Positions 4,411 to 63,258 of a stretch of DNA of 64,000 nt are shown piece by piece. Below the pieces are notes generated by a model that had not been told where the DNA came from, made no database searches, and saw only the letters and a list, made by a program, of their open reading frames with translations. Both the position numbers and the translations under genes were made by a program. How positions within the stretch are numbered: the first letter of the stretch is position 1; the number at the start of each line of letters is the position of its first letter. Origin of the DNA: an uncultured Candidatus Saccharibacteria bacterium (GTDB lineage: Bacteria > Patescibacteriota > Minisyncoccia > UBA6257 > XYB1-36-10); assembly GCA_964362215.1 (NCBI GenBank), contig CAYIDJ010000002.1:911-64910 (forward strand). Direction: 5' to 3'.

Positions 4411-4419
4411 TGAAGAGGA

Positions 4420-4447
4420 CTGGATTCCTGCTTTCGCAGGAATGACA
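4420..4447. repeat. REP-like hairpin copy
   Basis: ctggattcctgctttcgcaggaatgaca directly after the STAS gene stop. Confidence 0.8.
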
Positions 4448-4562
4448 CGGAAGTAAAAGATAAATCCCGGAGATGATATCAAAGGGATTTTTTATTTTGG
4501 AAGCGAAGCCTGCCTACGCTCTGTCGAGCTTCGGCGGGGCGAAGTGGTATAATGAAAAGCAA

Positions 4563-5431: not shown

Positions 5432-5536
5432 AGTAAAAGATAATTGTTTGTGAGACACGTGTATTTTCTGGCTGGAAAATCACTCTGATTCGCACCGCCG
5501 TGCTCCGCGCGGTCTCACAAACAATTATCTTTTACT
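5432..5536. repeat. Long hairpin element, family C copy 1 (25-bp perfect inverted repeat, ~55-nt conserved loop)
   Basis: agtaaaagataattgtttgtgagac (5432-5456) is the exact reverse complement of 5512-5536. The loop ends in ctctgattcgcaccgccgtgctccgcgcg, which is shared with 42694-42748. Confidence 0.85.
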
Positions 5537-9966: not shown

Positions 9967-11664
9967 GTGACGGATGTTTTTTTACAACTGGGGGTGGTAA
10001 TGGGCATCGCGGTAGCGGTGTCGTGTCTGGCGCGATGGTTGCGCCAGCCGATGCTGGTGGGTTATATCGCGACGGGACTTATTATCAGTATCGGCCTGGC
10101 AAACTGGGTTGATTTTGCGTCCATTGAGTCGTTCGCGCGTTTGGGAGTGGCGTTACTTTTGTTTATGGTGGGGATGGGGATAGCACCACACTTGGTTTAC
10201 GAGATGGGGCCGGTGGCGGCAGCGGTAGGTCTGGGGCAAATTGTTTTTACGGCGGTGATAGGTTATGGAATCGCGATGTTGTTGGGGTTTGCCAGTGTTA
10301 CGGCCCTGTATCTGGCAGTGGCATTTACTTTTTCCAGCACGATTATAATCGTACAGCTTCTGCATGAGCGGGGAGACACGGAAAAACTTTACGGAAGGAT
10401 AGTGATAGGAATGTTATTGGTGCAGGACTTGGTGGCAATGGTGATACTGCTTGGCATTTCTTTATTCCAACAGGCGGGCGGGGTGGCGGCGGGGTGGGAC
10501 AGTTTCACAAGTTTGCTGGTTTTTAATTTTGCCGCTGGCGCGCTTTTGGTTTATTTATTGGGGGTGTTCGTATTGCCGCGGGTGGATAAGTTTTTTGTCA
10601 AGAGCAGCGAGTCATTGCTTGTTTTTTCGCTGACAGTTTGTTTCGGGGTGATAGTGGCATTTAAATACTTGGGATTTCCGCCGGAAGTGGGAGCGTTGTT
10701 GGCGGGGGTGATGATGGCTTCCTCGCCGCACCAGCGTGAAATAGCGGCCAGGATAAAACCGCTGCGCGACTTTTTCCTGATTATGTTTTTCGTGATGCTG
10801 GGATTCACGCTGGAACCGTCGGCTTTAGCGGGGAATTGGTGGCCGGCGGCGGTATTTTCACTTTTTATAATTGTCGGCAATCCGCTGATTGTGATGACGG
10901 TAATGAAGGTGATGGGTTATTCGCTACGGACAATGTTTTACGCGGGGCTGACGGCGGCGCAGATAAGCGAATTTTCACTGATACTTTTAGTATTGGGAGT
11001 GTCGCTGGGACACATTCCGGCGGCGGTAGCGGCGCTGGGAACACTGGTGGGATTAGTAACAATCGCGGCCTCATCTTATATGATTACTTACGCGGACGGG
11101 CTGTACCGATATTTGCGTCCGTATTTGGAAGTTTTCAGCGACGGGCGGGCGCACCCGGAAGATAAGGAAAAAGGAGAGGAGTATGAGGTGTTTGTTTTTG
11201 GCGCGCATCGATTGGGGGGCGGGGTGATTGCTTCTTTGAAGCGCAAGAAGGTTAAATTTTTAGTGGTGGATTACGACCCGATAATTGTGGCGGAACTTAA
11301 AGCCAGGCGGGTGCTGGCGGTGTTCGGCGACGCGGGAGAACCGGATTTTCTGGAGGAATTAAAACTGAAGAGCGCGAAGATGATCATATCTTCCATTCCA
11401 GAGGCGGAGACGGCGATAAATATTATGAATTATTTGAAAAAGATACATTCGCGAGCGGTTTTTGTGACGGTGGCCGGTGCGGTTAGCGAAGCAGAAAAAC
11501 TTTATGAAGCGGGGACGCATTTTGTGATTATGCCGCATTATTTAGGTAGACGTTATTTAGTGGAGATGCTGGAGCGGCACGGGTTTGACAAGAAAAAGTA
11601 TAACCGGGAGCGAAGCAGGCATCAGCGAGAGTTGGTTTTAGCGGGGCAAGAGAAAACTCTTTAA
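9967..11664 (+). CDS. Cation:proton antiporter (CPA2, Kef-type) with C-terminal RCK/TrkA-N domain
   Basis: 565 aa with about 12 hydrophobic segments. The C-terminal 'VFVFGAHRLGGGVIASLKRKKVKFLVVDYDP' is a Rossmann GxGxxG-like TrkA-N motif. Confidence 0.8.
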   Translation: MTDVFLQLGVVMGIAVAVSCLARWLRQPMLVGYIATGLIISIGLANWVDFASIESFARLGVALLLFMVGMGIAPHLVYEMGPVAAAVGLGQIVFTAVIGYGIAMLLGFASVTALYLAVAFTFSSTIIIVQLLHERGDTEKLYGRIVIGMLLVQDLVAMVILLGISLFQQAGGVAAGWDSFTSLLVFNFAAGALLVYLLGVFVLPRVDKFFVKSSESLLVFSLTVCFGVIVAFKYLGFPPEVGALLAGVMMASSPHQREIAARIKPLRDFFLIMFFVMLGFTLEPSALAGNWWPAAVFSLFIIVGNPLIVMTVMKVMGYSLRTMFYAGLTAAQISEFSLILLVLGVSLGHIPAAVAALGTLVGLVTIAASSYMITYADGLYRYLRPYLEVFSDGRAHPEDKEKGEEYEVFVFGAHRLGGGVIASLKRKKVKFLVVDYDPIIVAELKARRVLAVFGDAGEPDFLEELKLKSAKMIISSIPEAETAINIMNYLKKIHSRAVFVTVAGAVSEAEKLYEAGTHFVIMPHYLGRRYLVEMLERHGFDKKKYNRERSRHQRELVLAGQEKTL

Positions 11665-16173: not shown

Positions 16174-16368
16174 CCATACTAAAAAAATTTCTGGATGCTG
16201 GTAATGCGGCTCATAATATACTCTCGCTACCGTCCATCTCCCCAGCGAGGAGATGGACTACGCCTCGCCCTCGCTCGTCCCGACTAAAGTCGGGACACCG
16301 TGCCTGCTCGGGCTCGGATGCGCGCTCGAGTATATTATGAGCCGCATAGTGTATATTTTTTAGTGTGG
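16174..16368. repeat. Nested palindromic element, family B copy 1
   Basis: Outer arms atgcggctcataatatactc (16204-16223) and gagtatattatgagccgcat (16328-16347). Inner hairpins are gtccatctcc/ggagatggac and gtcccgac/gtcgggac. Homologous to 63101-63258. Confidence 0.85.
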
Positions 16369-16463: not shown

Positions 16464-16570
16464 ATAGAAGTCGCTAATGGCAATGGGGAGAATAAACCAC
16501 TCTTTTCTTTCCTACTTTAGGGGAGAGGTTGGATAATAAGGTAGTCCCGAATTACTCGGGACTTTTATTA
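16464..16570 (+). repeat. Family-A right-arm fragment + conserved 3-prime module
   Basis: atagaagtcgctaatggcaatggggagaataaa (compare 22764-22795), then gggagaggttggataataaggtagtcccga-attac-tcgggacttttatta. Confidence 0.7.
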
Positions 16571-16616: not shown

Positions 16617-16943
16617 TCAGGAGTGAGTGGCTTGAGATAAAGGGGAAGGTTTAACTTCAACAATTAGTTTATTGCCAGAGAAGTCCAGAATAGTGAAGTC
16701 ATAATTGTGCATAATAAAAGGTATAGTTACAAGCGGTGTGGAGCGGGATATTTCCTTGTGCCAGGCCATAGCGGCATAGTCAACAAGACAGTGCGGAGTG
16801 ACGAAGTTGATTTTTTTCAGGCTTTGGTAAAATTCATCCCGTTTTATGCCGGAAACGGTCTTCATTTCTCGCCATTGAAGATAAATTTCCAGTTCTCCCG
16901 AGCGCTGATTAATAAGAGACCAGTTGGCGGTTTTTCTTTTCAT
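16617..16943 (-). CDS. Small hypothetical protein, possible TnsA-N/PD-(D/E)XK-like nuclease fold
   Basis: Internal start MKRKTANW (GGAAAGGA SD) within ORF 16617-17168. 'RSGELEIYLQW' and the C-terminal 'YDFTILDFSGNKLIVEVKPS' resemble the S..E / D / EVK motifs of TnsA-type endonucleases. This is weak and from memory. Confidence 0.35.
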   Translation of the reverse strand: MKRKTANWSLINQRSGELEIYLQWREMKTVSGIKRDEFYQSLKKINFVTPHCLVDYAAMAWHKEISRSTPLVTIPFIMHNYDFTILDFSGNKLIVEVKPSPLSQATHS

Positions 16944-17140
16944 TTTTTCTATCCTTTCCGTTTTTAGTTTTTTATTTACTGGTTTTAATTTAGCGGGGTT
17001 GGGGTTGAGTGTCAAATTTGTGTGGGAGAAATGATGGAAGGAGGAGGGAATAGCGAAGGGAGAAGAAATTCCTCGCCCTACGGGCACTCCATGCAACAAA
17101 AGGGAGAATATGAATTTGTTGACGTGGTATAATCTAAATA

Positions 17141-18451
17141 ATGGTGAAAAATCTGGCGGAGTTGGCAAAAAGTCCGGCGCGGGAGAAGGCGCTGGAAATT
17201 CTTAACGCGGGATATGAGGCGATAAACATTCGGCGATTGGTTAGCCGCAAGGTGCGTTTAGAGGGTTCGCTATTTAAGGTTGAGGGGAGAGAATTTGATT
17301 TGAAAGAGTACAATCGTGTTTTTTTGGTGGCCTTTGGTAAGGGAGCGGCAGATTTCGCGTTGGCAGTGGCGGGGGTGTTGGGTGACAGATTGGAGCGAGG
17401 AATAGCGCTGGATATAATCAAGCCAGAGGCGGAATTACTGGAGGTTATTCCGGAAAGAATTGAGTTTTTAACGGGGACGCATCCGTTGCCGTCAGCGGCC
17501 AATATCGCGGCGACAAAAAAAATAGCAGGGCTGGCTGACCGACTGGGAAAGAGAGATTTGCTTTTGGTACTGGTTACCGGCGGCGGGTCGTCACTACTAA
17601 CAGCGTCGGAGCGAGAGTTTACGGACGCGCTGGTAGCGATAACAACATTGACTAAGGCGGGCGCACCGATTAATGAGCTCAACACGGTGCGCAAGCACTT
17701 GGGGGAGTTAAAAGGAGGAGGGTTGGCGCGGTTGGCGTATCCGGCGACGGTGGTCTCTTTAATCGCCTGTGATGTGTGTTATCGAGCGGATATTGATTTA
17801 TCCCTGGTGGCGTCAGGCCCGACGGTTGAAGATAAAAGCACAAAGCGTGAGGCGGAGGAGATACTGACGCGGTACGGGCTTAATCCATACTTATTTAATT
17901 TGCGGGAGACGCCGAAGGAGGAGATGTATTTTGAACGGGTGGAAAACATATTGGTGGCGTGTAATCAAGACGCGTTGGCGGCGATGGAGGAGAAGGCGGC
18001 TGAATTAGGACTATCGGCGAAAATTTTTTCCACGGCGGTGGCGGGGGAGGCACGGAATGTTTTTCACGCGATACTGGACAAGATAGAGCCGGGGGAAGTA
18101 GCGCTGGCCGGAGGGGAGACGACGGTTAAGATAAGAGGGAGGGGGCGTGGAGGAAGAAATCAGGAAGCGGTTTTAGGCGGGTTGAGATATGTTTATGGGC
18201 ACAAGGATTGGCCGGGGGGGACGTGGGCGATAATAAGCGCGGCTTCCGACGGAAGGGATAATACACCGGCGGCGGGGGCGATGGGGGACAATTTTACGTT
18301 TGAGGCGGCGCGGAAGCAGGGGTTGGATATGGTCAAGTTTTTGGACGATAACGATTCATTTAACTTCTTGGCGGCAACGGGAGACTTAATTTATGCGGAC
18401 CGGAAGAGTTTTAACGTGGCGGATTTGATGTTGGCGGTGAGGGAGAAATGA
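17141..18451 (+). CDS. Glycerate 2-kinase (DUF4147 + MOFRL family)
   Basis: 'FGKGAADFA', 'LVLVTGGGSSLL', 'LNTVRKHLGELKGGGLA', 'GGETTVKIRGRGRGGRNQE' are typical of TtuD/GCK-type glycerate kinases. Confidence 0.8.
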   Translation: MVKNLAELAKSPAREKALEILNAGYEAINIRRLVSRKVRLEGSLFKVEGREFDLKEYNRVFLVAFGKGAADFALAVAGVLGDRLERGIALDIIKPEAELLEVIPERIEFLTGTHPLPSAANIAATKKIAGLADRLGKRDLLLVLVTGGGSSLLTASEREFTDALVAITTLTKAGAPINELNTVRKHLGELKGGGLARLAYPATVVSLIACDVCYRADIDLSLVASGPTVEDKSTKREAEEILTRYGLNPYLFNLRETPKEEMYFERVENILVACNQDALAAMEEKAAELGLSAKIFSTAVAGEARNVFHAILDKIEPGEVALAGGETTVKIRGRGRGGRNQEAVLGGLRYVYGHKDWPGGTWAIISAASDGRDNTPAAGAMGDNFTFEAARKQGLDMVKFLDDNDSFNFLAATGDLIYADRKSFNVADLMLAVREK

Positions 18452-18467
18452 GGTACAATGGAATTGT

Positions 18468-18848
18468 ATGTTTAATTTTGAAAAACCGACGGGGGGTGGG
18501 GCGGAGGAGGTAAAAAAGAAAACATTAAAGGAAGAAGAAAAGGAGAGAAGCGCTCATATTTTAGATAAGAAGGCGGCGGAGATGTTTAGAAAAGCGGATG
18601 AAGCAGATAATTTGGGCGCAACAATAGCCGGCGTAGAAAATAAGTTAATGAAGGAGACCAACCCGCAAATACGGAAAACATTAGAGATCCAATTAAAACG
18701 GTTAAAGGAAGAGAGAGGAGCTATGGGGAAGAGAGAATTAGAAGAAGAGGCTAAAAAGCTTAGAGAAAAGTTTAGACCAAAGAGACAAGAAGAGCTCAAA
18801 GGAGATTACAGTAGAACAAGATTAGGAGGAAAAAGGAGAGTCGCTTGA
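18468..18848 (+). CDS. Lys/Glu-rich hypothetical protein
   Basis: 126-aa charged, predicted-helical ORF that abuts ppsA. No motif recognised. Confidence 0.4.
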   Translation: MFNFEKPTGGGAEEVKKKTLKEEEKERSAHILDKKAAEMFRKADEADNLGATIAGVENKLMKETNPQIRKTLEIQLKRLKEERGAMGKRELEEEAKKLREKFRPKRQEELKGDYSRTRLGGKRRVA

Positions 18849-21259: not shown

Positions 21260-21307
21260 TTATATTTATTTTCCCCATTACCCATAGCTCCGCTATTCGC
21301 TTAACGT

Positions 21308-21339
21308 GAACAAATAGGAATTTGTTTATGTGATATACT
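21308..21339 (+). promoter_or_regulatory. Palindrome GAACAAATAGGAATTTGTTt + extended -10 (TGaTATACT) upstream of eno
   Basis: The 20-bp palindrome (21308-21327) lies 3 nt before TG-a-TATACT (21331-21339). The GTG start at 21347 is only 7 nt downstream of the -10. Confidence 0.5.
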
Positions 21340-21346
21340 TAAAAAA

Positions 21347-22573
21347 GTGAAGTTAGATGAGGCGACAGTAGAAATAATTAAGGACTCGCGGGGGAGCGAG
21401 ACAGTTTTGGCGCGGGTGGTGAGCGGAGATAACTGGGGAGAGGCATCGGTGCCATCGGGACGGAGCCGTTCCAGTTATGAAGCGTACGTGTTGGAGCCGC
21501 ACATTGCCCAGAAGCGTTTTTTGAGCGAGGTTAAGGAGAAGATGTTGGGGCGTAATTTTGAGCATCAAGATAAGTTTGATAATTTTTTGAGGCGGCTGGA
21601 CGGAACGGCGGACAAACGGCGACTGGGTGGAAACACGACCTTGGCGCTGTCTTTGGCTTTCGCGAGGACAGCGGCGCGGGAAAGGGGGTTGGAGCTTTAT
21701 GAATATATCAACCGGATATACCGCGGGGGCGGGCAGGCGATTCCACTTTCGTTGCCGCGCCTGATTTTTAATTTAATTAATGGAGGGAAGCATGCGATGG
21801 GGACAGATCTGTCTTTTCAGGAGTTTCAGGTTATTCCGCAACATGAGAGCGTGAGGGAGGGGGTGGCGGCGGGGAGAAATTTATATAAGCGGTTAGGAGA
21901 GGCGTTGAGGAAACAGTTTGGGAAGGATAATGTTGAGTTGGGAGATGAGGCGGGATACGCAGTTAAGTTTGGAAGTAACGAACGGGCGCTGGCCGCGCTG
22001 AAAGAGGCGGTGAGAGAAGATGCCTTTCGGAAAAGAGTGTCATTTGATTTGGGAATTGACGCGGCGGCTAATTCTTTTTATGACAAAGATAAAGGCATAT
22101 ATCGTGTGGGCAGAGAGGAGATGAAGGCGGGAGAGTTGGCGAAATATTACCGGCACTTGGCGCATAAGTACGGGCTGATGCTGATTGAGGATCCTTTTCA
22201 CGAGGAGGCGTTTGCTGATTTTGCGGGGTTGAATAAGACAACCGGATTTTACGTGGTGGCGGATGATTTGACGGCGACTAATTTAGCGAGAACGAAGATA
22301 GCGGTAGGGAACGCGGCGGCGGACGCGATGATTGTAAAGCCGAATCAGGCGGGAACACTAACGGAGACAGTTGAGGCGGCGCGGTACGCGCATCGTTCCG
22401 GCTGGCAGCTGATTGTCAGCCACCGGAGCGGGGAGACAGAGGACGATTTTATCGCGGACTTGGCAGTAGGAATCAACGCTTGGGGGATAAAGGCGGGGGC
22501 GCCGGAGACGGCAGTGAGGATGGCGAAGTATTATCGGTTGGAGAAAATTGAGAAGGAGTTGGAAGGGAAGTGA
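21347..22573 (+). CDS. eno: Enolase (short form)
   Basis: 'IIKDSRGSETV', 'IEDPFHEEAF', 'VADDLTATN', 'MIVKPNQAGTLTE', 'SHRSGETEDDFIADLAVG' are enolase signature blocks. Confidence 0.85.
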   Translation: MKLDEATVEIIKDSRGSETVLARVVSGDNWGEASVPSGRSRSSYEAYVLEPHIAQKRFLSEVKEKMLGRNFEHQDKFDNFLRRLDGTADKRRLGGNTTLALSLAFARTAARERGLELYEYINRIYRGGGQAIPLSLPRLIFNLINGGKHAMGTDLSFQEFQVIPQHESVREGVAAGRNLYKRLGEALRKQFGKDNVELGDEAGYAVKFGSNERALAALKEAVREDAFRKRVSFDLGIDAAANSFYDKDKGIYRVGREEMKAGELAKYYRHLAHKYGLMLIEDPFHEEAFADFAGLNKTTGFYVVADDLTATNLARTKIAVGNAAADAMIVKPNQAGTLTETVEAARYAHRSGWQLIVSHRSGETEDDFIADLAVGINAWGIKAGAPETAVRMAKYYRLEKIEKELEGK

Positions 22574-22590
22574 AAAATATGTTTTGTGAT

Positions 22591-22791
22591 ATTCTCCCCA
22601 TTACCATCGGCTCCGCTATTCGCTTAAAGCGAGTAATATTCACTCCCCTCTAATTTGGCTTATAAAACGGCTGGTTCCCGTTCCTCCCAAGGGGATTTTC
22701 CGACCAGCCGTTTTATAAAAGCCAAATTCTTCGTTGCGTTCATTTATCGCTAATTAAGCTCATAGAAGTCGCCAATGGTAATAGGGAGAAT
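22591..22791. repeat. Nested palindromic element, family A copy 1 (~200 bp)
   Basis: attctccccattaccatcggc (22591-22611) pairs with gccaatggtaatagggagaat (22771-22791). Inner arms ...ggcttataaaacggctggt / accagccgttttataaaagcc also pair. Homologous to 34824-35040. Confidence 0.85.
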
Positions 22792-22810
22792 AATTTACCC
22801 TTTTTATTTG

Positions 22811-22880
22811 GAGAGGGGGTTGGACTTAAGGTAGCCCGCCAAAATTTTTGCTTGCGCAAAAACTTAGGCGGGCTTTTGTT
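22811..22880 (+). terminator. Conserved 3-prime module: GAGAGGGGGTTGGACTTAAGGTAGCCCGCC hairpin + T tract
   Basis: agcccgccaaaatttttg-cttgcg-caaaaacttaggcgggct then tttgtttt. The same module recurs at 8 other sites. Confidence 0.7.
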
Positions 22881-22881
22881 T

Positions 22882-22917
22882 TATCCACTTATAATACATA
22901 TGTATTATAAGTGGATA
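22882..22917. repeat. 36-bp perfect palindrome P1 (TATCCACTTATAATACATATGTATTATAAGTGGATA)
   Basis: It is its own reverse complement. Related copies are at 37772-37807 and 46275-46310, with half copies at 26081-26095 and 42601-42610. Confidence 0.85.
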
Positions 22918-22950
22918 TAATTAAAGAAATAGCCCCGAGGTGGGTCGGGG

Positions 22951-23046
22951 CTAATGATGTTTATGTGGATTAATAAAAAAAAGGAAAAGAAGGGAAATTA
23001 GAAGGAACAGATAGAAGATAATAAAGGCATCAGAGGTGCGGAGCAT
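22951..23046 (-). CDS. Candidate 31-aa hydrophobic peptide (MLRTSDAFIIFYLFLLISLLFLFFINPHKHH)
   Basis: Below the ORF-track size cut-off. AAAGGA lies 7 nt before the ATG. There is one TM-length hydrophobic run. The stop overlaps hairpin agccccga-ggtgggt-cggggct (22931-22953). Confidence 0.3.
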   Translation of the reverse strand: MLRTSDAFIIFYLFLLISLLFLFFINPHKHH

Positions 23047-23120
23047 ATTTTTTTCCTTTCTTGAATGAGAGCTGATTAAATTATACCGAAAACTTGGCAG
23101 AGATGCTATAATTAAAAAAT

Positions 23121-24137
23121 ATGAAAATAGGGGTTTGGCAGATGGAGGGGTGGGAGGCGGAATATTTTACGAAGGCATTAGCGGGGCAGGAGGTGGAAAT
23201 TTTTTCGGGCAAGCTGTCGGCGGAGGAGTTGCCGGAGAAGCGTGATTTTGAGGCGATTTGCGTGTTTGTGGGGTTGCCAGTTTCGGTGGAGGTGATTGAT
23301 GCCTTTCCGAAATTAAAATTGATTACCACCCGTTCTACCGGGTATGACCATATTGATTTGAAAGCGGCGGGGGCGAAGGGAATACAAGTCGGATACGTGC
23401 CAAGTTACGGAGAGAACACGGTAGCGGAGCACACTTTCGGGCTGCTTTTAACTTTATCGCACCATATTTACGAAGGGTATGACCGGTTGCGGGAGAAGGG
23501 GGAGTACAGTTTTGAGGGGTTGGAGGGATTTGATTTGAAAGGGAGGACAATAGGAGTGGTGGGAACAGGACGAATCGGAGTTCACTCCATAAGGATAGCC
23601 AAGGGATTTGAGATGAAGGTAATTGCTTATGACGCGTATCCCAAGGCAGGGTTGGATAAGGAGATAGGGTTTGAATATAAGAAAAGTTTGGAAGAGCTGC
23701 TGGCAGAGGCGGATGTGGTAACACTGCACGTGCCGTATATGTCGGAGACGCATCATCTGATAAACAAAGATAATATCGGGAAGTTTAAGAAGGGGGCGGT
23801 GCTGATAAATACGTCGCGGGGAGCGGTGGTGGAGACGGACGCGCTAGTCCGGGCTCTTAAGGAGGGGCATTTGGGCGGGGCGGGGTTGGACGTGATGGAA
23901 GAGGAGGGGGTGATGGCGGACGAGATGGGATACTTACTTTCGGGAAGCGAGAAGACGGATTTGAAGGTGGTGTTAGAAAACCACGCTTTAATTGATATGC
24001 CAAACGTAATAGTGACGCCGCATTCGGCGTTTAACACACGGGAGGCGAAGGAGAGGATTTTGAAGACAACGGTGGAGAATATATTGAGTTTTGCGGAGAG
24101 CGGAAAAACAAAAAATTCAGTAGAAGATATTAAGTAG
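23121..24137 (+). CDS. D-isomer-specific 2-hydroxyacid dehydrogenase (D-lactate dehydrogenase-like)
   Basis: NAD motif 'GVVGTGRIGVHSIRIAKGF', 'LINTSRGAVV', catalytic 'VTPHSAFNT'. TGcTATAAT (23104-23112) lies 8 nt before the ATG. Confidence 0.85.
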   Translation: MKIGVWQMEGWEAEYFTKALAGQEVEIFSGKLSAEELPEKRDFEAICVFVGLPVSVEVIDAFPKLKLITTRSTGYDHIDLKAAGAKGIQVGYVPSYGENTVAEHTFGLLLTLSHHIYEGYDRLREKGEYSFEGLEGFDLKGRTIGVVGTGRIGVHSIRIAKGFEMKVIAYDAYPKAGLDKEIGFEYKKSLEELLAEADVVTLHVPYMSETHHLINKDNIGKFKKGAVLINTSRGAVVETDALVRALKEGHLGGAGLDVMEEEGVMADEMGYLLSGSEKTDLKVVLENHALIDMPNVIVTPHSAFNTREAKERILKTTVENILSFAESGKTKNSVEDIK

Positions 24138-24247: not shown

Positions 24248-24817
24248 TCATTGAGCAGCGGAAATTTCTTCTTTTTCAAGAATCGCTGCTATTTTCTTAA
24301 TACAGGCATAGGCCTTGGGAGAGTGGATGCTGGTAAAGCAAAAGATGTTTTTATATTCTTCCACGGTTGAGGCGAATTCCATGGCCTTCTCCAAGGCCTT
24401 TCTTTCCACCTCGCTGCCGCCTGGAGCTTTCCGGCAGATACCCAGACACTCTTTCACGGTTGAGGCGAATTCCATGGCCTTCTCCAAGGCCTTTTTTTTC
24501 ATCTCGCTGCCGCCTGGAGCTTTCTGGCAGATATCCAGACACTCTTCCACGGTTGAGGCGAATTCCATGGCCTTCTCCAAGGCCTTTTTTTCCACCTCGC
24601 TGCCGCCTGGAGCTTTCCGGCAGATACCCAGACACTCTTCCACGGTTGAGGCGGAGAGAAGTTTCTTCATTATGTCGGTTTCCTCCGGTAATGGCACATC
24701 GAGGGCTGAACAAACTTGGTCTCTTTTGTCTTGACCAAGAATCAGGCACAACCTATCAACTAACACTGAATTGTCCATAACAGAACTCCCTTCACTTTTT
24801 TGGGTTTTAATTAACAC
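24248..24817 (-). CDS. Tandem-repeat protein (31-aa helical repeats ASTVEECLxICxKAPGGSExxKKALEKAMEF)
   Basis: The longest of several open frames over the repeat (189 aa) and the only one with unique N- and C-terminal flanks. It sits between a terminator and a divergent promoter region. Confidence 0.5.
   Translation of the reverse strand: MLIKTQKSEGSSVMDNSVLVDRLCLILGQDKRDQVCSALDVPLPEETDIMKKLLSASTVEECLGICRKAPGGSEVEKKALEKAMEFASTVEECLDICQKAPGGSEMKKKALEKAMEFASTVKECLGICRKAPGGSEVERKALEKAMEFASTVEEYKNIFCFTSIHSPKAYACIKKIAAILEKEEISAAQ
24362..24653. repeat. 93-bp tandem repeat, ~3.1 copies, near-identical
   Basis: cacggttgaggcgaattccatggcc recurs at 24362, 24455, 24548 and 24641, an exact 93-nt (31-codon) period. 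Confidence 0.9.
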
Positions 24818-25955: not shown

Positions 25956-25987
25956 GGCGGGAGGAAAAAATATAAAGTTCAGGCAAT

Positions 25988-26095
25988 ATTCTCCCCATTA
26001 CCACTGGCTCCGCTATTCGCTTAAAGCGGATAATATTCGCTCCAATCCAATTTGGCTTATAAAATGACCGGTTCCCGTTGTTTTATAAGTGGATA
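25988..26095. repeat. Family A left arm only (truncated copy) fused to a half P1 palindrome
   Basis: attctccccattaccactggctccgctattcgcttaaagcgg...ggttcccgtt, then ttttataagtggata. The right arm is missing. Confidence 0.75.
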
Positions 26096-26144
26096 GAGTA
26101 TAAAAAGGTGATGTCAGGGTGATAGTTGTTGTATAATAGCGGGG

Positions 26145-26843
26145 ATGGAAGAAATAGAGCGGAAGAGACTGGAGGTGGAGAGGGACAAGAAGTGGCGTGT
26201 ACTTGGCCGGCGGGCGGCGGTTTTTGAGTGGATGCCATTCGTGGAGGTGGCAATGGTCGCGGGAAGCATGGCGATGGGGACGGCGCGGATAGAGTCGGAT
26301 TTTGATTTGATTTTGGGAATGAAGACGAGGAGAATTTTTACGGGGAGATTTTTTTTGACGATGATTTTAGCGGGGATGGGATGGCGGAAGCGGCGAAATA
26401 GCCAGACAACTCATAATCGGTTTTGCCTGAACCATTTTGTGACGGCGGAGTTGTATTGTTTGCGGCCGCCATATAATGTTTACTGGGAGGAATTGTATCG
26501 GCGGCTGGTACCGGTTTATGGAAAGCGGGAGGAAATAAACAAGTTTTTGGCGGCGAATAGGTGGGCTAGAGCGGGGGAGTTTAGAGATGACGGACGGTGG
26601 CGGGGCGGAAAGCGAAGATGGTTAAAAAGAGCCACGGAGAGAGTTATGGGCGGGCGGTTTGGTAATTGGCTGGAGCGGCGATTAGGAATTTGGCAGTTGA
26701 AGCGAATAGCGCAGAGCGCGGCGGAGGATATGGGATACAAACCGCGGATGCATTATGACTGGACAGAGTTGGAATTTCATCCGGATACAAGAAGGATAGA
26801 AGAGTGGCTGAAACAAGAGGGATATATTTATCAAAACAAATAG
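26145..26843 (+). CDS. Pol-beta-superfamily nucleotidyltransferase-domain protein
   Basis: 'VAGSMAMGTARIESDFDLILG' fits hG[GS]x9-13Dh[DE]h. The rest is helical and Arg/Trp-rich. Confidence 0.6.
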   Translation: MEEIERKRLEVERDKKWRVLGRRAAVFEWMPFVEVAMVAGSMAMGTARIESDFDLILGMKTRRIFTGRFFLTMILAGMGWRKRRNSQTTHNRFCLNHFVTAELYCLRPPYNVYWEELYRRLVPVYGKREEINKFLAANRWARAGEFRDDGRWRGGKRRWLKRATERVMGGRFGNWLERRLGIWQLKRIAQSAAEDMGYKPRMHYDWTELEFHPDTRRIEEWLKQEGYIYQNK

Positions 26844-26857
26844 GGACGCGACTTAAT

Positions 26858-34823: not shown

Positions 34824-35040
34824 TATATTCCCCCACCACCATTCGCTCCGCTACTCGCTCAAAGCGAATAATATTCGCTCCGTTCTAATTTGGCTTATAA
34901 AATGACTGGTTCCCATTCCTCCCTCGATAGAACCTCGGGATTTTCCGACCAGTCATATTTATAGAAGCCAAATTGTTCATTCCGCTCATTTATCGCTTAT
35001 TAAGCTCGTAGAAGTCGCGAATAATGATGGGGAGAATATA
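34824..35040. repeat. Nested palindromic element, family A copy 2
   Basis: tatattcccccaccaccattcgc pairs with gcgaataatgatggggagaatata. Collinear with 22591-22791 throughout. Confidence 0.85.
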
Positions 35041-37771: not shown

Positions 37772-37856
37772 TATCCACTTATAAAACATATGTTTTATAA
37801 GTGGATAGGTTGGGTGTGGTTACTATAATTTTTCCACGGTCGTTGGAAAATTATAG
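37772..37856. repeat. Two-hairpin module: P1 palindrome (37772-37807) + H2 hairpin (37823-37856)
   Basis: tatccacttataaaacatatgttttataagtggata, then ctataatttttccacggtcgttggaaaattatag. The same pair is found in reverse order at 46231-46310. Confidence 0.8.
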
Positions 37857-39345: not shown

Positions 39346-40908
39346 TTAGATATGGAAGACGGGGGCGGTGGGGGGAATAGAGTCGGTTTGAGGGGGGAGA
39401 AGGTAGAAGATGTTTTTGGTTTGGCGGTTTTCGGGTGACCAGGTATCGGTTAAGAATATTACGGTTTGGGCGGGCATGGGGAGGCCGCGGACGTCAACGC
39501 CGCCGGAGTCCACAATGACGTATTTTGGAATGGCGGAGGGAAGGGAGTTTATTTGAGCGGCGAGGTCAACATAGTTTTGGTTGAAGGCGCCGGCGGTTTC
39601 AGGATTTTGTCCCCATTTAAGGAAGTAGGTGTCGTAAGTATTTATAGTAATGGTGGCGAGGAAAATTATGGCAAGAGCAAAGAGAAAACGGCGCTGGCGG
39701 GGGAGAATGGTTTTAAGATGTTCATAAACATAGATACCGCCTAAAGCGGAGAGAATAAAGACGGGCGGAATCATCAGAATAGCGCGGAGGGCGTGGGGAA
39801 GGCCTTCGTTAGAAATTACTACCGGTAAGGCAGAGATAAATAACCAAGAAAATAAAATAATCGGAAGTAACAGCGATGAATTATGGACTGGATTCCCGCT
39901 TTCGCGGGAATGACGGAAGAGTGTATAAAGTGAAATGGGGATACCGATTAAGAACAGTATACCGACGGGCCAGTAGAGCTGGGGCGCGCCAGCAAGGTTG
40001 TGGCGCCAGTTGCCGTCGCCCGCAAAATTAAACATAGCGGCGGTTTTGGAGGTATTTATAACCAGGTCTTTAAGAGGAGAAGCGGAAGAAAAGACAGATA
40101 TTTGGGAGGTACGGCCGAGGAAATCGGCGGGGTTATTTAGGAAATACAGGCCGAGCGGGGCGGCGGTGATGACAGCGCCAATGGTGAAGGCGGCGGCGGC
40201 TTGCCAGAATTGTTTGGAGCGCCAGAAGAAAGGAATAAAGACAAGAAAGAGCAGGGGCATAGCGCGGTAGGCGATGTAAGAATATAAACCGAGGCCAAAT
40301 ATTATCCCACTAAGGACGGCGGGGATGATGAATAGCCGCCACCCGGCAGGTTTCGGCCGCGCCTGTTGGCGAGCGGGGGAAATGGATTTAAGAAAAAAAT
40401 AAAGAGCCCAGATGAGAAAAGCAGGAGCCATAATGGCGCGGAAGCCGACGCGGGAGAAGTTGATGTGCCAAAAGCTCACGGCGAGGAAAAAGGAGGAGAG
40501 AAGAGCAGTAACCTCGCCGCGAGAAATCCTAAATCCTATCCGCCAGCTGGCGGACGAAACTCTAAATAATTCTTTGGTTAGGAAAAATAGTCCCAGAACG
40601 GTTAAGATACCGAAGATAGCGGAAGGGAAGCGGAGCGCCCAGGGTTGGGTGGGGGAGATGCCGGAGTTTTCCAAAGAGCCGAGGAAGGCGGCCTGGATGT
40701 TTATGAAAAGTCCTTCGCGGCCGTTGTTTTCGGGGTAGAAAACTTTGTATCCGCCAGCTGGCGGACTTGTGTGAAGCGCTTCCAGAGCGTTGTTGCCATT
40801 CATGGCCTCGTCCGGATAGAGGCCGGGAGGGGTAGAGGAAAGATTATAAAGCCGGAAGAAGGAGGCAATAGCAATTATAAGAATGAGCCAAACCCAAGTT
40901 TTTTTCAT
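39346..40908 (-). CDS. GT39-family (ArnT/PMT_2-like) glycosyltransferase carrying three in-frame palindromic inserts
   Basis: 520 aa and polytopic. 'LYPDEAMNGNNALEA...FYPENNGREGLFINIQA' is typical of this family. It contains a REP copy (39888-39915) and two 16-bp palindromes. Confidence 0.75.
   Translation of the reverse strand: MKKTWVWLILIIAIASFFRLYNLSSTPPGLYPDEAMNGNNALEALHTSPPAGGYKVFYPENNGREGLFINIQAAFLGSLENSGISPTQPWALRFPSAIFGILTVLGLFFLTKELFRVSSASWRIGFRISRGEVTALLSSFFLAVSFWHINFSRVGFRAIMAPAFLIWALYFFLKSISPARQQARPKPAGWRLFIIPAVLSGIIFGLGLYSYIAYRAMPLLFLVFIPFFWRSKQFWQAAAAFTIGAVITAAPLGLYFLNNPADFLGRTSQISVFSSASPLKDLVINTSKTAAMFNFAGDGNWRHNLAGAPQLYWPVGILFLIGIPISLYTLFRHSRESGNPVHNSSLLLPIILFSWLFISALPVVISNEGLPHALRAILMIPPVFILSALGGIYVYEHLKTILPRQRRFLFALAIIFLATITINTYDTYFLKWGQNPETAGAFNQNYVDLAAQINSLPSAIPKYVIVDSGGVDVRGLPMPAQTVIFLTDTWSPENRQTKNIFYLLPPQTDSIPPTAPVFHI
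39888..39915. repeat. REP-like hairpin inside CDS (encodes RHSRESGNPVH)
   Basis: ctggattcccgctttcgcgggaatgacg matches the intergenic copies at 1895, 4420 and 12488. The reading frame is maintained. Confidence 0.8.
40539..40554. repeat. 16-bp perfect palindrome TCCGCCAGCTGGCGGA inside CDS (read as SASWR)
   Basis: Exact palindrome. A second identical copy lies 211 bp away. Confidence 0.85.
40750..40765. repeat. 16-bp perfect palindrome TCCGCCAGCTGGCGGA inside CDS (read as PPAGG)
   Basis: The same 16-mer as 40539-40554, translated in a different phase of the same gene. Confidence 0.85.
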
Positions 40909-42665: not shown

Positions 42666-42776
42666 CAGAAGCCCAGTTTCCTGTTTGTTGGACACGGATA
42701 TTTTTTTGCTAAAAAATTCCTCTGACTCGCACCGCCGTGCTCCGCGCGGTCCAACAAACAGGAAACTGGGCTTCTC
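42666..42776. repeat. Long hairpin element, family C copy 2 (27-bp perfect stem, conserved loop)
   Basis: agaagcccagtttcctgtttgttggac pairs with gtccaacaaacaggaaactgggcttct. The loop 3-prime half ctctgactcgcaccgccgtgctccgcgcg matches the copy at 5484-5511. Confidence 0.85.
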
Positions 42777-53476: not shown

Positions 53477-53528
53477 TAAAATCTCGTTGCTTGCGGGGAG
53501 GTATTCTGCGGAGATATAATAAAAACAT

Positions 53529-54278
53529 ATGGAAAAAGAAAAATTATTCAGCACTTTAAGATGGGCGGTGTGGGTATTGGTGGCACTGGCGGTTTACGGC
53601 ATATTTTGGGGTCCGCCGGCGCAGTTGGCGCGAGCGTTGCCGCCGGCGCGAACAGTGGTGGTGGCCGGCACGGGTAAGGCGGTGGGCATTCCGGACAAGG
53701 CGACAGTGAATTTCTCGGTGGTATCCAGCGGCAGTAATCCGGCGAAAGTGCAGGAGCAGAACACAAAGATGATGAACGAAGTAATCGCGTATCTTAAAGA
53801 ACAAGAAGTGGGAGAGAAGGATATAAAGACGAGCGGATATAATTTGTTACCAAAGTATTCTTATAATCAAGAAACCGGTAAGTCGGATATTTATGGCTAT
53901 GAGCTTAACCAGACGGTGACGGTGACGATAGGGGACTTGGGGAAAGTGGGGACGATAATCGGCGGTTTGGGTCAAAGAGGCATCAATCAGATCGGAAGTT
54001 TGTATTTTGAGGTGGAAAATAAAGATGAGTTGATGGCGGCGGCGAGGGAGGAGGCGTTTACAAAGGCGAAAGAAAAAGCAAAGGAGATGGCGAGTGCGGC
54101 CGGCGTGCGGCTAGGCAGAGCCATTTCTTTCTCGGAGTCGGGAGGTGGTTCGCCGATATTTTATGAGAAAGCGATGGCTTACGGTGTAGGCGGCGGAGAC
54201 AGTGTTTCATCGCCGCAGATAGAGCCGGGAAGCCAGGAGATAAACGTGAATGTGACGGTAACTTACGAGTTGAAGTAG
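53529..54278 (+). CDS. SIMPL-domain (DUF541) protein
   Basis: N-terminal TM plus 'GIPDKATVNFSV', 'IKTSGYNLLPKY', 'GINQIGSLYFEVEN', 'AREEAFTKAKEKA'. Confidence 0.8.
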   Translation: MEKEKLFSTLRWAVWVLVALAVYGIFWGPPAQLARALPPARTVVVAGTGKAVGIPDKATVNFSVVSSGSNPAKVQEQNTKMMNEVIAYLKEQEVGEKDIKTSGYNLLPKYSYNQETGKSDIYGYELNQTVTVTIGDLGKVGTIIGGLGQRGINQIGSLYFEVENKDELMAAAREEAFTKAKEKAKEMASAAGVRLGRAISFSESGGGSPIFYEKAMAYGVGGGDSVSSPQIEPGSQEINVNVTVTYELK

Positions 54279-58191: not shown

Positions 58192-58229
58192 CCCGCCTAA
58201 ATTTTTTCCTAAGCAAAAATTTAGGCGGG
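58192..58229 (+). terminator. Terminator-like hairpin of the CCCGCC-AT-rich family
   Basis: cccgcctaaatttttt-cctaag-caaaaatttaggcggg, then tttttgttt. Confidence 0.6.
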
Positions 58230-58351
58230 TTTTTGTTTATTTATGTATTGCCGAATTCAGGCAGTTTTTGTGATAAAATAAATTCCAATGAAAATAATGG
58301 CGAGAATATAAAAACTTTAACTCGGGCGGGGTTTGTATTATTATTTAGTTA

Positions 58352-61300
58352 ATGCCGGAAAGATTTCCCGACCGTCCGGAAAGAAATGAAGAAAACCTAA
58401 AGAAGGCGGGGTTAGAGTTGGAAAAAGAGGAAAAATCAGAAAAAGAGAAGATTTCGGAAGAAGTAATTCCGGAAGAAAAAACGCCCACGGAGATAGAAAA
58501 AGAAGTTATATTAAACAGTTTGAGTTTAGAAACTGAGCTTGAAAAAGACGCGACAAAAGAATTTAAAAAAGAAAGAAATGAAGAGTGGGAAGAGAAAAAG
58601 GATAATCTGACAATAACCGAGCTTAAAGAAACGGTAGAATTTAATGAATCACAAATAAAGAATCTATTGCATTACGGAGATTCTTTCTTTCACTTATCAG
58701 AAGAAGAGGGGGAGAAGATAGAGAAACTAAACATAAACTTGCCGGAAGAGACGGAGGAGGTTTATTTTTCCCTGAATAAAATAAAAGATTTTATGGAGAA
58801 GGCGCAGAATTATCGCCAAAAAGCTTTTAATCTGATCGGAATAACGGAAGAAGCAGAAGGTGTTTACATAAATAAGCAAGCGCAAGAAGGAGGATGGTCC
58901 TCTTTTCAGGAATTAAAAGAAGAGCATGAGCGACTCGAGGAAGAGATGATGAATTTAGACGAGAAACTAACTTATAACAAATCCTTGAAAAAGTTTATTT
59001 TTGATAAAGAATACCGACAAGAGAGGAAACAGGATAAGCAAAAATTTAAGGAAGTAAAAAAAGAGTACGAGCACAATGAAAAACTATTCCATCCATTAAG
59101 CTATTATAATTTTAGTATTAGAGAACAGATAAGAGGATTTAACCAACTTTTGGATATGTATGGACAAAATACTAAATATTTTACTGAAAAAATTGGAGAT
59201 AAATTAAGAGAAAAATTCATTCAGTATATAAAAAATAAACAAAAGGAAATGGCGCCGGCGGATGAGTTTAAAGATTATGATTTAAGTTTATGGGGACAAA
59301 ATTTTTCTAAGGTAAAAAACTGTTTAACAATTGAAAAAAGCTTAAAGGAGGTGATAACCGCGATGGAGGATAGGGAAAAATGGTATGTTTTTGATATTAA
59401 TAAATTAAAAGGAAGTATGGTTAAGAGTTCAATAAGTCAACACATTATTGAATTTTTTAAAGATGTTTCGTTTAATGACTGGGAGAAGTTTTGCGCGGAT
59501 AATGAAAACACCCTGACCGAAGAAATACGAAAGACAGTCAGCGGAGTTATAACGGATAGAATTCTGGAAACCAGAGAAAAATTTGACGATGGCCGTTTGC
59601 AGAGAGAGGCGGATAGCCTTAGTAACAGTTCTTTTGTTTTTGCTGATAAAGAAACAATGCCGATAGCCGTTATTAATTTACTTAATATTAGTGATTATTA
59701 TGATCGGGTTATGGTGGAAAATAGAGCAGCCGCTGTTTTTGAAAAGTTTAAAGAGGAGAATTTTGACGTTCCGGGAATAAAGAAAATTGTAAAAGCAAAG
59801 GAGATGGTTAATTCTGTTGGTGAATTTTTAAGAGGGGAAAGAGAAATGTATACTCGGTATTTATTAGCAGATGGTTTACTGGAGGCCGGTTCTTTTTACT
59901 TAAAATCAAACGATCCACGAATGCAGGTTTTGGGGGCTTTGTCTTTGCGTGAAATAGACAGATATGAAGGTGCCGACTCAAATAGATCCGATGAGGTTTA
60001 TAAAATGTTTAATAATGTTTATAAAGAAAAAAATCTTAATGAACGGGTAATAGGGGCCATTGGAAAAGTAGCCTTAGATGAGGTATGGTACACAAAAAAT
60101 TTTTATGCCAAGCAAATAGCTTTTAATTTAATTAAAGATTATGACCGTTTGTCTAATGTTAACCAGTGGAAAATAAAGGAGGCGGCGCCCAGGATGGTAG
60201 GATTGTTTGTTTCTAAAAATGAAGTTAGTAATATAAACGAAGAAGAAGCGGAAGTTTTAGCTAAAGTTCTTGAAATAGAACCAAAGGACCTTATAAAAAC
60301 AATTAATTTAATTAATTTGGCAATTAATACTCTTAACGTCAACCATGATTACAGCCCGTTAGAATTTAAACTTTATCATCGTTTGGCTAAAATTGAAGAT
60401 GCGGAAGATTTTTTGGTGAAATTAAATAATCTGGGTTGTCATTTTAGAATAGACAGCACGGATAAATTATTGAAAATACACGAAAACAAAGAGGAATTCA
60501 TAAGTAGAGTTAAACAATTAAAAAATTCCCTTAGTGATTCCGCCTCTTTTAATTTCATAGAGAGAGATGAAGATGTTTATAAAATAACCGATAGCAATCT
60601 TTTAGAAATTTTAGGCAGTTTTAAATCAGATAAGGGTTTGCAGAATTTTGTTCTAAACAATCTTGATAAAATCTTGGCTATTACTTCAGAAAGAAGAGAG
60701 AATTACATTAAAATTCTTGATAAAATAGAACATTCTCCCTCGCAAGAAATTCAAAAACTTAAAAACCAGATTCTTTCTGAAATTGTTTCCACTGATAATC
60801 CGGAGATATCTTATGAAAAGATAGAGCAAGTATTTTTAAAGAACAATCTGCCGGCGGTAGGGAAAATTTACCGCATTTTCGAGACGCTTTATCCGGCATA
60901 TAAAATAAAAAGTTTGATAAATTATCAATCCAGTCCGGTTTTACAGAAAGCCGGACCGACCAGACGGCGCCATATTTTTTACCAAGATTTATTAAAAACG
61001 CATATCCGTTCGGCTAACCGTTCACTTAGAGAATACGCGGAAGCTTTTTTAAGCGGCGAGGGAGTATTGGCTAAAGCGGAGCGGGACGGATTTGATAATT
61101 TAGCAGGAGAAGAAAAAGAGCGGTTAAAATATTTCTTCGGACGATTGAATACATTATTTTTAAGTTCTTCGCTGGGAGAAAACATCAAGGCGGTTGAAAG
61201 AGGTTTATCTTTAGAAGACGAATATAAAAGATTAAAGATAAGTTTGGTGGTTAAAGAAGGACAAACCGTTAAGGAGAGGGTGGAAGAAATGTTTTTGCGA

Positions 61301-63100: not shown

Positions 63101-63258
63101 AGCATCTCGTCAACATACTCTCCCTACCGTCCATTCCCCCAGCGAGGGAATGGACTACGCCTCGGTCTCGCTCCCGAGCACTCAAATTAAGAAATACGAG
63201 TGTTCGGACCATGCCCACTCGACCTCGGATGCGCGCTCAAGTATATTGGCGAGATGCT
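63101..63258. repeat. Nested palindromic element, family B copy 2
   Basis: agcatctcgtcaacatactc pairs with aagtatattggcgagatgct. It shares ...atactctccctaccgtccattcccccagcgagggaatggactacgcctcg... and ...ctcggatgcgcgctcaagtatatt with 16174-16368. Confidence 0.85.

Follow-up and report, generated by a model that had tools for sequence, protein, structure and literature searches.

The stretch of DNA analyzed here, referred to as the window, comprises 64,000 nucleotides (nt) of contig CAYIDJ010000002.1 from an uncultured Candidatus Saccharibacteria bacterium (assembly GCA_964362215.1), and it carries a short palindrome in near-identical form in front of the enolase gene eno and the cell division gene ftsI. 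Pfam assigns an enolase domain to the first of these genes and PBP_dimer and Transpeptidase domains to the second, an ftsI-type gene with mraZ, rsmH, and ftsL upstream. A third, degenerate copy, missed in the preliminary description of this DNA, precedes a glycerate kinase gene, the first gene of an operon that continues with a small open reading frame (ORF) and a gene for phosphoenolpyruvate synthase/pyruvate phosphate dikinase (glxK, small ORF, ppsA). Positions count along the window, and the sequence read in total was about 75 kb from this genome and about 100 kb from relatives. The organism is a very small Paceibacteria bacterium that lives in groundwater: the same DNA is present in Hainich groundwater assemblies of the 0.1-μm fraction, and the best protein relatives of the window are Paceibacteria/Parcubacteria of the candidate phyla radiation (CPR). 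Compared contigs are labeled with L numbers, and the percentages given with them are protein identities to the window; the nearest relatives stand at 80 to 88%. The palindromes and the promoter boxes beside them are the following.

17095..17121, + strand: third copy of the palindrome, CAACAAA-AGGGAGAATATGA-ATTTGTTG, decayed, before the glycerate kinase gene
17125..17133, + strand: TG-extended -10 box TGGTATAAT, 7 nt 5' of the ATG of the glycerate kinase gene (DUF4147/MOFRL)
21307..21328, + strand: palindrome copy 1, TGAACAAATAGGAATTTGTTTA, a 22-bp unit upstream of eno
21331..21339, + strand: TGATATACT, the TG-extended -10 box of eno, with the GTG start (21347) 7 nt downstream, leaderless type
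49893..49914, + strand: palindrome copy 2, TGAACAAATAGGAATTTGTTCA, perfect, hairpin 2 of an 84-nt module, upstream of ftsI
49919..49927, + strand: TGATACAAT, the TG-extended -10 box of ftsI/PBP2, with the ATG (49940) 12 nt downstream

The eno and ftsI sites both read TGAACAAATAGGAATTTGTT(T/C)A, at 21307-21328 and 49893-49914. The palindrome had been described as a perfect 20-mer before ftsI (49894-49913) and a copy with one mismatch before eno (21308-21327), and both were located as claimed: the former, GAACAAATAGGAATTTGTTC, resolves into GAACAAAT-AGGA-ATTTGTTC, and the latter, GAACAAATAGGAATTTGTTT, ends in T where the ftsI copy has C. One flanking base on each side is also common to the two sites and complementary, so that the shared unit is the 22-mer TGAACAAATAGGAATTTGTTYA. 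The two copies have the same orientation and are identical at 21 of 22 nt, the nonsymmetric AGGA center included. Each is a dyad of 9+4+9 geometry with half-sites about one helical turn apart and 6 nt between the hexamer arms AACAAA and TTTGTT. At up to 3 mismatches the 22-mer has two matches in the window, and 100 of 100 dinucleotide shuffles had none. The strain-variant contigs L001 and L081 are identical at these sites (2 single-nucleotide polymorphisms in 12.3 kb) and give no population signal.

Read as RNA, the eno copy has a stem that widens to 21304-21331 on the + strand, with 12 pairs including 2 G-U pairs and a fold energy of -10.9 kcal/mol (z = -4.0); the 20-mer alone forms an AU-rich stem of -5.4 kcal/mol. 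Elsewhere in the window, the 10-mer AACAAATAGG (left arm and start of the loop) recurs at 26835-26844 over a stop codon upstream of groES, with ATTTG 13 nt downstream and adjoining the TTGACA of the groES promoter, possibly by chance (about 0.1 such occurrences expected).

All three copies end 3 to 5 nt before a TGnTAnnnT box, the gap being 3 nt (ATG) at eno and 5 nt (AGGTG) at ftsI. At a spacing of 17 bp, the palindrome itself would cover the -35 hexamer (21311-21316 and 49899-49904), and there is no TTGACA-like hexamer at either position; a consensus promoter scan of the window made no call at the eno or ftsI site. The earlier statement that the palindromes lie 3 to 5 nt upstream of extended -10 boxes, where a -35 would normally sit, is thus borne out by the sequence. 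The combined pattern AACAAA-N(2-30)-TTTGTT-N(3-7)-TGnTAnnnT occurs three times in the window, compared with a shuffle mean of 0.02. A random position has such a box 3 to 7 nt downstream with a probability of about 0.004 genome-wide; counted over the free part of a spacer alone, the probability for each copy is perhaps about 0.1. Three of the four clear TGnTAnnnT promoters of the leaderless type in the window carry the hairpin. The tie to TG-extended -10 boxes is real and far beyond chance.

Similar TATAAT-like boxes, often with TGn, lie 7 to 8 nt before the starts at 17141, 21347, 23121, 26145, 44670, and 53529 (box-to-start units 17125-17143, 21331-21349, 23104-23123, 26132-26147, 44657-44672, and 53515-53531). 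These closely spaced starts have no Shine-Dalgarno sequence, and the spacing is likewise kept in L021, L022, and L023. Because the architecture is kept in relatives, the boxes are probably promoters of leaderless or near-leaderless mRNAs, and their number suggests that leaderless mRNAs are widespread in this genome.

Several other explanations of the sequence next to the -10 boxes were considered and rejected. The TTGTTN of the right arm is only 6 to 8 nt from the -10 box, too close for a -35 element, and under an alternative sigma factor of the extracytoplasmic function type, recognizing GAAC, the spacing would vary between sites. The mini-ORF ATG/GTG-AAC-AAA-TAG is a by-product of the TGTGA extended -10 motif and has no counterpart in L017; the “start-stop” ATG/GTG-TGA after the AGGA loop has the same origin.

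The third copy came to light through the 9-mer GAATTTGTT (loop edge and right arm), which occurs four times on the + strand of the window: in the two palindrome copies, in one coding start, and at 17112, 4 nt before TGGTATAAT and in a register equal to that of the eno copy. Here the left arm CAACAAA is displaced outward by about 8 nt, leaving 14 nt between the hexamer arms versus 6 nt in the intact copies, and the copy is followed by ACG, TGGTATAAT, 7 nt, and the ATG at 17141. The pattern AACAAA-N(2-30)-TTTGTT is found three times in the window against 0.18 expected, and none of 200 shuffles reached three. The three copies in the sequence read from this genome are all intergenic. Spread arms of this kind are hard to fit to one dimeric protein and are ordinary decay for a repeat, which favors a repeat. 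Chance likeness of AT-rich stretches can be set aside with near certainty in view of the 22-mer shuffles, the third copy, and the steady register, although 11 of 100 shuffles did yield two matches at 3 mismatches when the spacer was left free.

Comparison with relatives revealed that the palindrome is absent from the orthologous promoters. At eno, the arrangement TG(G/A)TATAAT, 7 to 8 nt, and a GTG or ATG start is kept in L021 (82%), L022 (80%), and L023 (59%), and the palindrome is missing from all three. At ftsI, L016 (88%; from the same sample as L022) has the identical TGATACAAT box and leader without the palindrome, the spacer of L017 and L018 (84%) is of another kind, containing a Shine-Dalgarno sequence but no palindrome, L019 (60%) has nothing similar, and in L025 (57%) ftsL and ftsI overlap, leaving no spacer. 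No copies were found in the approximately 100 kb of relatives' DNA, nor in an extra 10.6 kb of the same genome (L020 and L026). Since the -10 boxes are kept where the palindrome is missing, parsimony suggests that the palindrome was gained at three promoters in the lineage of the window, that the boxes are ancestral, and that the repeat does not carry the promoter. In several relatives the space is occupied by a terminator: a GC-rich one with a U-tract stands directly against the -10 box of L022 eno, another abuts TTATAAT at L023 glxK, and in L019 a terminator hairpin likewise lies against a -10 box. Separately, L016 has, at 1945-1990, an AU-only hairpin, AAACAAACAAT-TACG-ATTGTTTGTTT, that follows the stop codon of ftsI and is separated by 4 nt from TGGTGTATTTA, which may be a promoter of tRNA-Glu; the arms of this hairpin and its position relative to the TG box are like those of the window copies.

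These comparisons bear directly on the proposal, made in the preliminary description, that a common dimeric regulator joins glycolysis to cell division. In its fuller form, which we regard as possible but doubtful and as the leading alternative to the explanation favored below, a dimeric protein specific to this lineage, in the simplest case a repressor, would have the palindrome as its operator (for example, an Xre/Cro-like helix-turn-helix, or HTH, protein with ACAA..TTGT half-sites). The dyad would cover roughly -19 to -41 of three extended -10 promoters and so occlude RNA polymerase, lower glycolysis (the glxK-ppsA operon and eno) would be coregulated with septal peptidoglycan synthesis (ftsI), and the sites would have spread by copy-and-paste. 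A perfect 9+4+9 dyad centered about -30 from the predicted start sites is what such a protein calls for; the register with TG-extended -10 boxes in all three copies and the share of leaderless-type promoters that carry the dyad (three of four) fit it as well, and one pathway supplies two of the three targets as neighboring units. The idea fails the phylogenetic footprint, however, since the nearest relatives lack the site at eno (L021, L022, and L023) and at ftsI (L016 and L017/L018). The good copies, moreover, do not define a degenerate motif with a free spacer; identity that extends to the asymmetric spacer has a probability of 1/256 under independent evolution and is typical of recent copying rather than of independently evolved operators. 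The distance from the center to the -10 box also differs by 2 bp between the two good copies, and the third copy departs in the spacing of its arms.

The search for a cognate protein returned little. Across essentially all ORFs of the window plus extra flanks, Pfam and NCBIfam identified MraZ as the only DNA-binding protein, and mraZ is the only HTH gene in the sequence read from this genome, which may count against an operator; MraZ boxes are direct repeats, unlike this dyad. The motifs of MraZ, LexA, Rex, CRP/FNR, CIRCE, and NrdR were rejected for misfits of half-site sequence, order, or spacing. The only ORF divergent at the third copy, 16617-16943 (minus strand, divergent from glxK), is an orphan without homologues in two very large protein collections and without a fold signal, and its single-sequence model is unusable. 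It was dropped as a regulator candidate along with the small ORF 18468-18848 and others; for these candidates, the orphan included, there was no Pfam or NCBIfam domain, no homologue, and an AlphaFold2 local confidence (pLDDT) of 44. In L023, an Xre-type HTH gene (HTH_3, E = 2e-9) lies at 11275-11583 between eno and a 2-hydroxyacid dehydrogenase gene; the matching spacer of the window, 22574-23120, is 547 nt of repeats and hairpins only.

Wider searches with the exact 19-mer produced 5 matches among GTDB genomes (596 Gb) and 9 among JGI metagenomes. Each is a lone occurrence in an unrelated taxon, and the totals are about what chance would give; the source genome is included in neither collection. 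In IMG/VR the free-spacer pattern had 53 matches, all single and unrelated, and the linker-plus-palindrome pattern had none; these scans show no phage link. An apparent multicopy match, L009, proved to be eukaryote-like satellite DNA. One match outside the clade is of a different kind. At L006 4150-4230, in a metagenome-assembled genome (MAG) of the Actinomycetes with 69% GC, a 24-bp palindrome, CCGAACAAATAGGAATTTGTTCGG, includes an exact match to the 20-mer of the window and adjoins TACAAT without a gap, the ATG of a Fic-domain gene following 6 nt later; 18 nt upstream of this palindrome is a TGTTCGGAACA dyad, and homologues of the Fic protein in plasmids reach at most 36% identity. The placement against the TACAAT of a leaderless gene makes an operator position possible for this sequence and is a point in favor of a protein-binding role. 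The match is nevertheless probably a coincidence, because a 9+4+9 dyad has few free positions and there are millions of dyad operators in nature.

The ftsI copy proved to belong to a longer element, which consists of the following parts in addition to copy 2.

49841..49892, + strand: remainder of the two-hairpin module (L017 homology, RNAalifold; 95 bits with covariance model R1)
49841-49849, + strand: 5' box of the module, AAGACAATA, common to the window and L017
49850-49880, + strand: hairpin 1, stem GACTCT/AGAGTC plus closing pairs (GACTCC..GGAGTC in L017)
49881-49889, + strand: linker with conserved ACGAGCAGA, common to the window and L017

The whole ftsL-ftsI spacer (49832-49915, about 84 nt) aligns with L017:997-1080, in an 84% relative, with a local alignment score of 57, whereas shuffled queries scored 22 ± 2.6 and at most 31. 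The L017 segment occupies a nonorthologous place, flanked on one side by a small-ORF terminator and on the other by the rnpB promoter, and the window has other sequence at the matching position. The L017 version of hairpin 2 reads ACGT-AAACGAAT-AAGA-ATTCGTTT-ACG, and after it comes the local terminator tail, GGGGTTTTGTTTTAT (also given as GGGGTTTTGTTTT), which is common to other terminators of these genomes. The eno copy represents hairpin 2 of the module only and shares its ACGT left extension with the L017 homologue. The preliminary description had held that the regulatory reading would lapse if the palindrome occurred at these two places only and were part of a longer repeat fragment unrelated to promoters, and this is largely the situation here: the ftsI copy is the 3' hairpin of an element of about 84 nt with a homologue at an unrelated locus. 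A covariance model of the module, run over 170 kb, matched only the ftsI module, the eno copy, and the L017 segment; weak matches of model R1 in L025 and L023 (E = 0.03 to 0.25) were not accepted as copies.

Folding the window and L017 modules together with RNAalifold gave 19 pairs, 4 of which are changed on both sides (2 per hairpin), a count that comes from two sequences only; covariation as a whole draws on two full sequences and one partial one. Within the palindrome the paired swaps from the window to L017 are G1:C20 to A:T and A5:T16 to G:C. A G-U pair conserved in both module sequences pairs only on the + strand, and + strand G-U pairs favor a single-stranded structure. The paired half-site changes would also fit a dimer coevolving with its operator, but the homologue in L017 covers no promoter and is accompanied by a second covarying hairpin and by a linker that is also conserved, which an operator would not lead one to expect.

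Target-site duplications and terminal repeats were also considered for the module. A 15-nt direct repeat around the L017 element, a candidate target duplication, was discarded since it equals the shared terminator tail, and the ends of the 84-nt module bear no terminal inverted repeats, so that the definition of a miniature inverted-repeat transposable element (MITE) does not apply. Intrinsic terminators of this clade share a near-fixed tail, GGG(G/C)TTTTGTTTT(AT) (46745-46782, 22863-22880, and 58224-58240; L017 940-954 and 1080-1094), and for this reason identical 15-mers may flank unrelated segments and mimic target-site duplications.

The structure of the module raises the question of whether it is a small RNA gene, with a promoter near AAGACAATA, hairpin 1, ACGAGCAGA as a single-stranded seed, and the palindrome as terminator stem; at eno and glxK, only the terminator of such a gene would be left. 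The module is kept between two genomes with structure-preserving changes and a conserved unpaired linker, and in L017 it is by itself in the interval from a terminator to the rnpB promoter and ends in the local U-rich tail, all of which would suit an RNA gene. We nonetheless consider it improbable. Searches of Rfam 15 gave at best 18 bits in the window and 24 bits in the L017 region, all far below gathering scores, and no convincing promoter was seen, GACAAT being a poor -10 box. The window copy, without a U-tract, would read into ftsI, there are only two full copies with covariation from two sequences, and the strict register with the -10 boxes would be left unexplained.

A promoter-carrying repeat had been offered earlier as the alternative to a regulator, and here the repeat is closer to the evidence and the carried promoter is not. 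If the hairpin and the TG-extended -10 box moved together as a mobile promoter module, the likeness of copy 1 and the third copy might be expected to run from the right arm through the -10 box, as it does (GAATTTGTTnAyGTGrTATA), and the -10 box and leader of eno in the window do differ at 3 positions from the mutually agreeing L021 and L022. Yet relatives that lack the hairpin have these -10 boxes too, equally far from the start codon, which points to ancestral promoters, and promoter consensus accounts for the likeness in the -10 region; we rate joint movement as very improbable.

Taken together, the evidence leads us to favor, tentatively and with somewhat less than even confidence, the view that the eno, ftsI, and decayed glxK sites are copies of one short, lineage-specific, hairpin-forming intergenic repeat with the core TGAACAAATAGGAATTTGTTYA; the palindrome is probably not a conserved site at which one regulator binds in front of these genes. 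The complete repeat, seen upstream of ftsI, would be the 3' stem-loop of the two-stem-loop module of about 84 nt, and the copies would have been gained recently in this Paceibacteria lineage. They may have landed in the only dispensable room that very short spacers offer, between the end of the upstream unit and a preexisting TG-extended -10 box, since an extended -10 promoter driving a leaderless or near-leaderless mRNA would need no -35. Selection would then act on the pairing of the arms in single-stranded nucleic acid and not on the protein recognition sequence of a regulon. We infer that the stem-loop is needed for copying, either through hairpin-dependent transposition of single-stranded DNA or through template switching anchored on TGTGATA promoter sequences. 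In read-through RNA from ppsA or ftsL, the 3' stem-loop would lie where relatives have the terminator of the upstream gene and might serve as a weak insulator or 3'-end hairpin between back-to-back units.

The hairpin repeat also suits its surroundings. Intergenic palindromes number about 100 calls in the window and 3 to 13 in shuffles, making them about ten times more frequent, and the other intergenic repeat and hairpin families of the window are absent from the corresponding spacers of relatives; such crowding with repeats and hairpins favors a hairpin repeat over an operator. An IS200-type Y1_Tnp gene in the relative L025 (19606-20034, E = 3e-28), a contig without these hairpins, places a Y1 transposase in the clade and was counted toward the same view. 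The register, too, may be explicable without a regulator, because spacers are minimal, the -35 region would be dispensable, and relatives place terminators there; alternatively, copying may anchor on similar TGTGATA sequences.

Several observations weigh against this interpretation. The consistent placement of the copies relative to TG-extended -10 boxes suggests that they are linked to promoter function or follow a rule of targeting, and the paired changes in the arms are expected from a coevolving dimer and operator as well. The window copies are not canonical terminators, having an AU-rich stem and no U-tract, and the glxK copy lies in a divergent spacer without a codirectional upstream gene, where a role as an RNA 3' hairpin cannot apply; on these two grounds any RNA-level function appears to be at most weak and not general. 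No transposase was found in the sequence read from this genome, and the window, L020, and L026 have no Y1 or RAYT transposase. The converse, that the hairpin is a true promoter element, seems unlikely to us. It would be a copy-and-paste operator or a DNA stem-loop replacing the -35 at TG-extended -10 leaderless promoters, with a lineage-specific factor coupling glxK-ppsA and eno to ftsI, and the regulon would have been assembled, within the divergence separating genomes at 80 to 88% identity, by spread of the 22-bp module.

The two outcomes differ in their consequences. An operator, if that is what the palindrome is, would be considerably more interesting than a repeat: it would offer a rare view of a link between carbon metabolism and cell division arising by copy-and-paste of binding sites, and in an organism with almost no known regulators. 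If the hairpin repeat holds, it would add one more short hairpin-repeat family, and it would indicate that the -35 space of extended -10, leaderless-type promoters, being dispensable, is where repeats of very compact CPR genomes settle, and that these repeats turn over between relatives at 80 to 88% protein identity. It also carries a caution for motif hunting, in that an identical dyad at two promoters of one genome is no evidence of a regulon.

Other repeats are abundant in the window, and one of them lies close to the eno copy.

21267..21304, + strand: left-end fragment of the MITE-like family A, cut off at CGCTTAA (repeat families D3, D5, and D13)

This fragment, noted earlier just upstream of the eno copy, is real, and the palindrome is not part of family A. 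The family is a MITE-like repeat of about 205 nt with terminal inverted repeats TATTCTCCCCATTACC...GGTAATAGGGAGAATA; its copies lie at 22589-22792 and 34824-35038, with a partial copy at 25986-26079 and fragments at 16464-16506 and 21267-21304. Three 36-bp palindromes (22882-22917 and 37772-37807, both perfect, and 46275-46310, with an 11-bp stem and a 14-nt center) hold the DnaA-box-like TTATCCAC in their arms, and each comes just after a terminator tail; those at 22882 and 46275 run straight into -10-like TATAAT or TAAAAT. An operator-like palindrome with 19-bp arms, TAAACTATTCTAATGTTCTCAAGAACATTAGAATAGTTTA, lies between divergent genes at 44580-44619, and a related, likewise operator-like copy follows tRNA-Glu at 51812-51839; the adjoining 132-amino-acid (aa) ORF at 44080-44478 has no known domain. 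Further repeated hairpins occur at 1894-1966, 4419-4453, and 39887-39921, at 5432-5536 and 42667-42775, and at 16232-16258 and 63129-63155, the families including the REP-like ACTGGATTCCCGCTTTCGCGGGAATGACA, long inverted repeats (25- to 27-nt arms, 55-nt center), and GTCCATCTCCCCAGCGAGGAGATGGAC.

Among features apart from these repeats, the RNase P RNA at 47568-48063 is of class A (214 bits) and, at 496 nt against a 367-position model, must carry sizeable insertions. GC skew is very strong and varies little, staying between +0.17 and +0.45 in each 2-kb interval, and the + strand carries nearly all of the genes. A 93-nt unit is repeated three times in tandem at 24357-24653 (94 to 100% identical), inside a minus-strand ORF of 189 aa without a known domain, and a 1,503-aa ORF without a Pfam domain (58352-62863) lies in a stretch of markedly lower GC content (0.36 to 0.37 versus about 0.49 elsewhere).

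Among known systems, the closest in several respects are repetitive extragenic palindromic (REP) sequences and their REP-associated tyrosine transposases (RAYTs). As with these, the palindrome is a short extragenic sequence of about 20 to 30 nt, with several near-identical copies and rapid turnover between close relatives; its stem is kept by paired changes, it lies on the 3' side of genes in a host full of other repeats, and a Y1 transposase gene is present in the clade (L025). It differs in that a GTAG-like 5' tetranucleotide is not conserved (the flanks on the left read ACGT, GTAT, and CATG), a RAYT gene was not found near the copies, the stem is AU-rich, and inverted REP pairs are missing; the fixed -10 register of the window (three of three copies) is not a property of REP sequences.

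Operators of repressors (434/Cro-type ACAA-N6-TTGT, LexA boxes, and those of TetR and Xre proteins) resemble the palindrome in their perfect dyad with ACAA/TTGT half-sites, in covering the -35/spacer region, and in recurring at several promoters. Here, however, orthologous promoters lack the palindrome, its copies match even at the asymmetric center, the roughly 75 kb read from this genome yielded no cognate regulator, and a relative has the palindrome at another place, within a longer two-hairpin module. The gram-positive LexA box, GAAC-N4-GTTC, stands upstream of DNA repair genes, whereas here GAAC and GTTC are 12 nt apart (GAAC-N12-GTTC) and stand before glxK, eno, and ftsI.

The setting is also like that of back-to-back terminator/promoter junctions, the palindrome taking the place of the terminator hairpin and U-tract of relatives (L022 eno, L023 glxK, and L019). 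Unlike those of intrinsic terminators, the stems in the window are not GC-rich and are followed by AUGUGAUA or AGGUGUGA with no U-tract, and a terminator scan of the window made no call at either palindrome; the likeness extends to the L017 homologue only, where the tail GGGGTTTTGTTTT follows the hairpin. Mobile promoters and the Correia elements of Neisseria likewise place the same upstream sequence before unrelated genes of one genome, but here the -10 box is ancestral and only the hairpin is new, without terminal inverted repeats or target duplications. The class to which the element is best compared is that of short hairpin-forming intergenic repeats, and its unusual trait within that class is a preference for the -35 space of extended -10 promoters.

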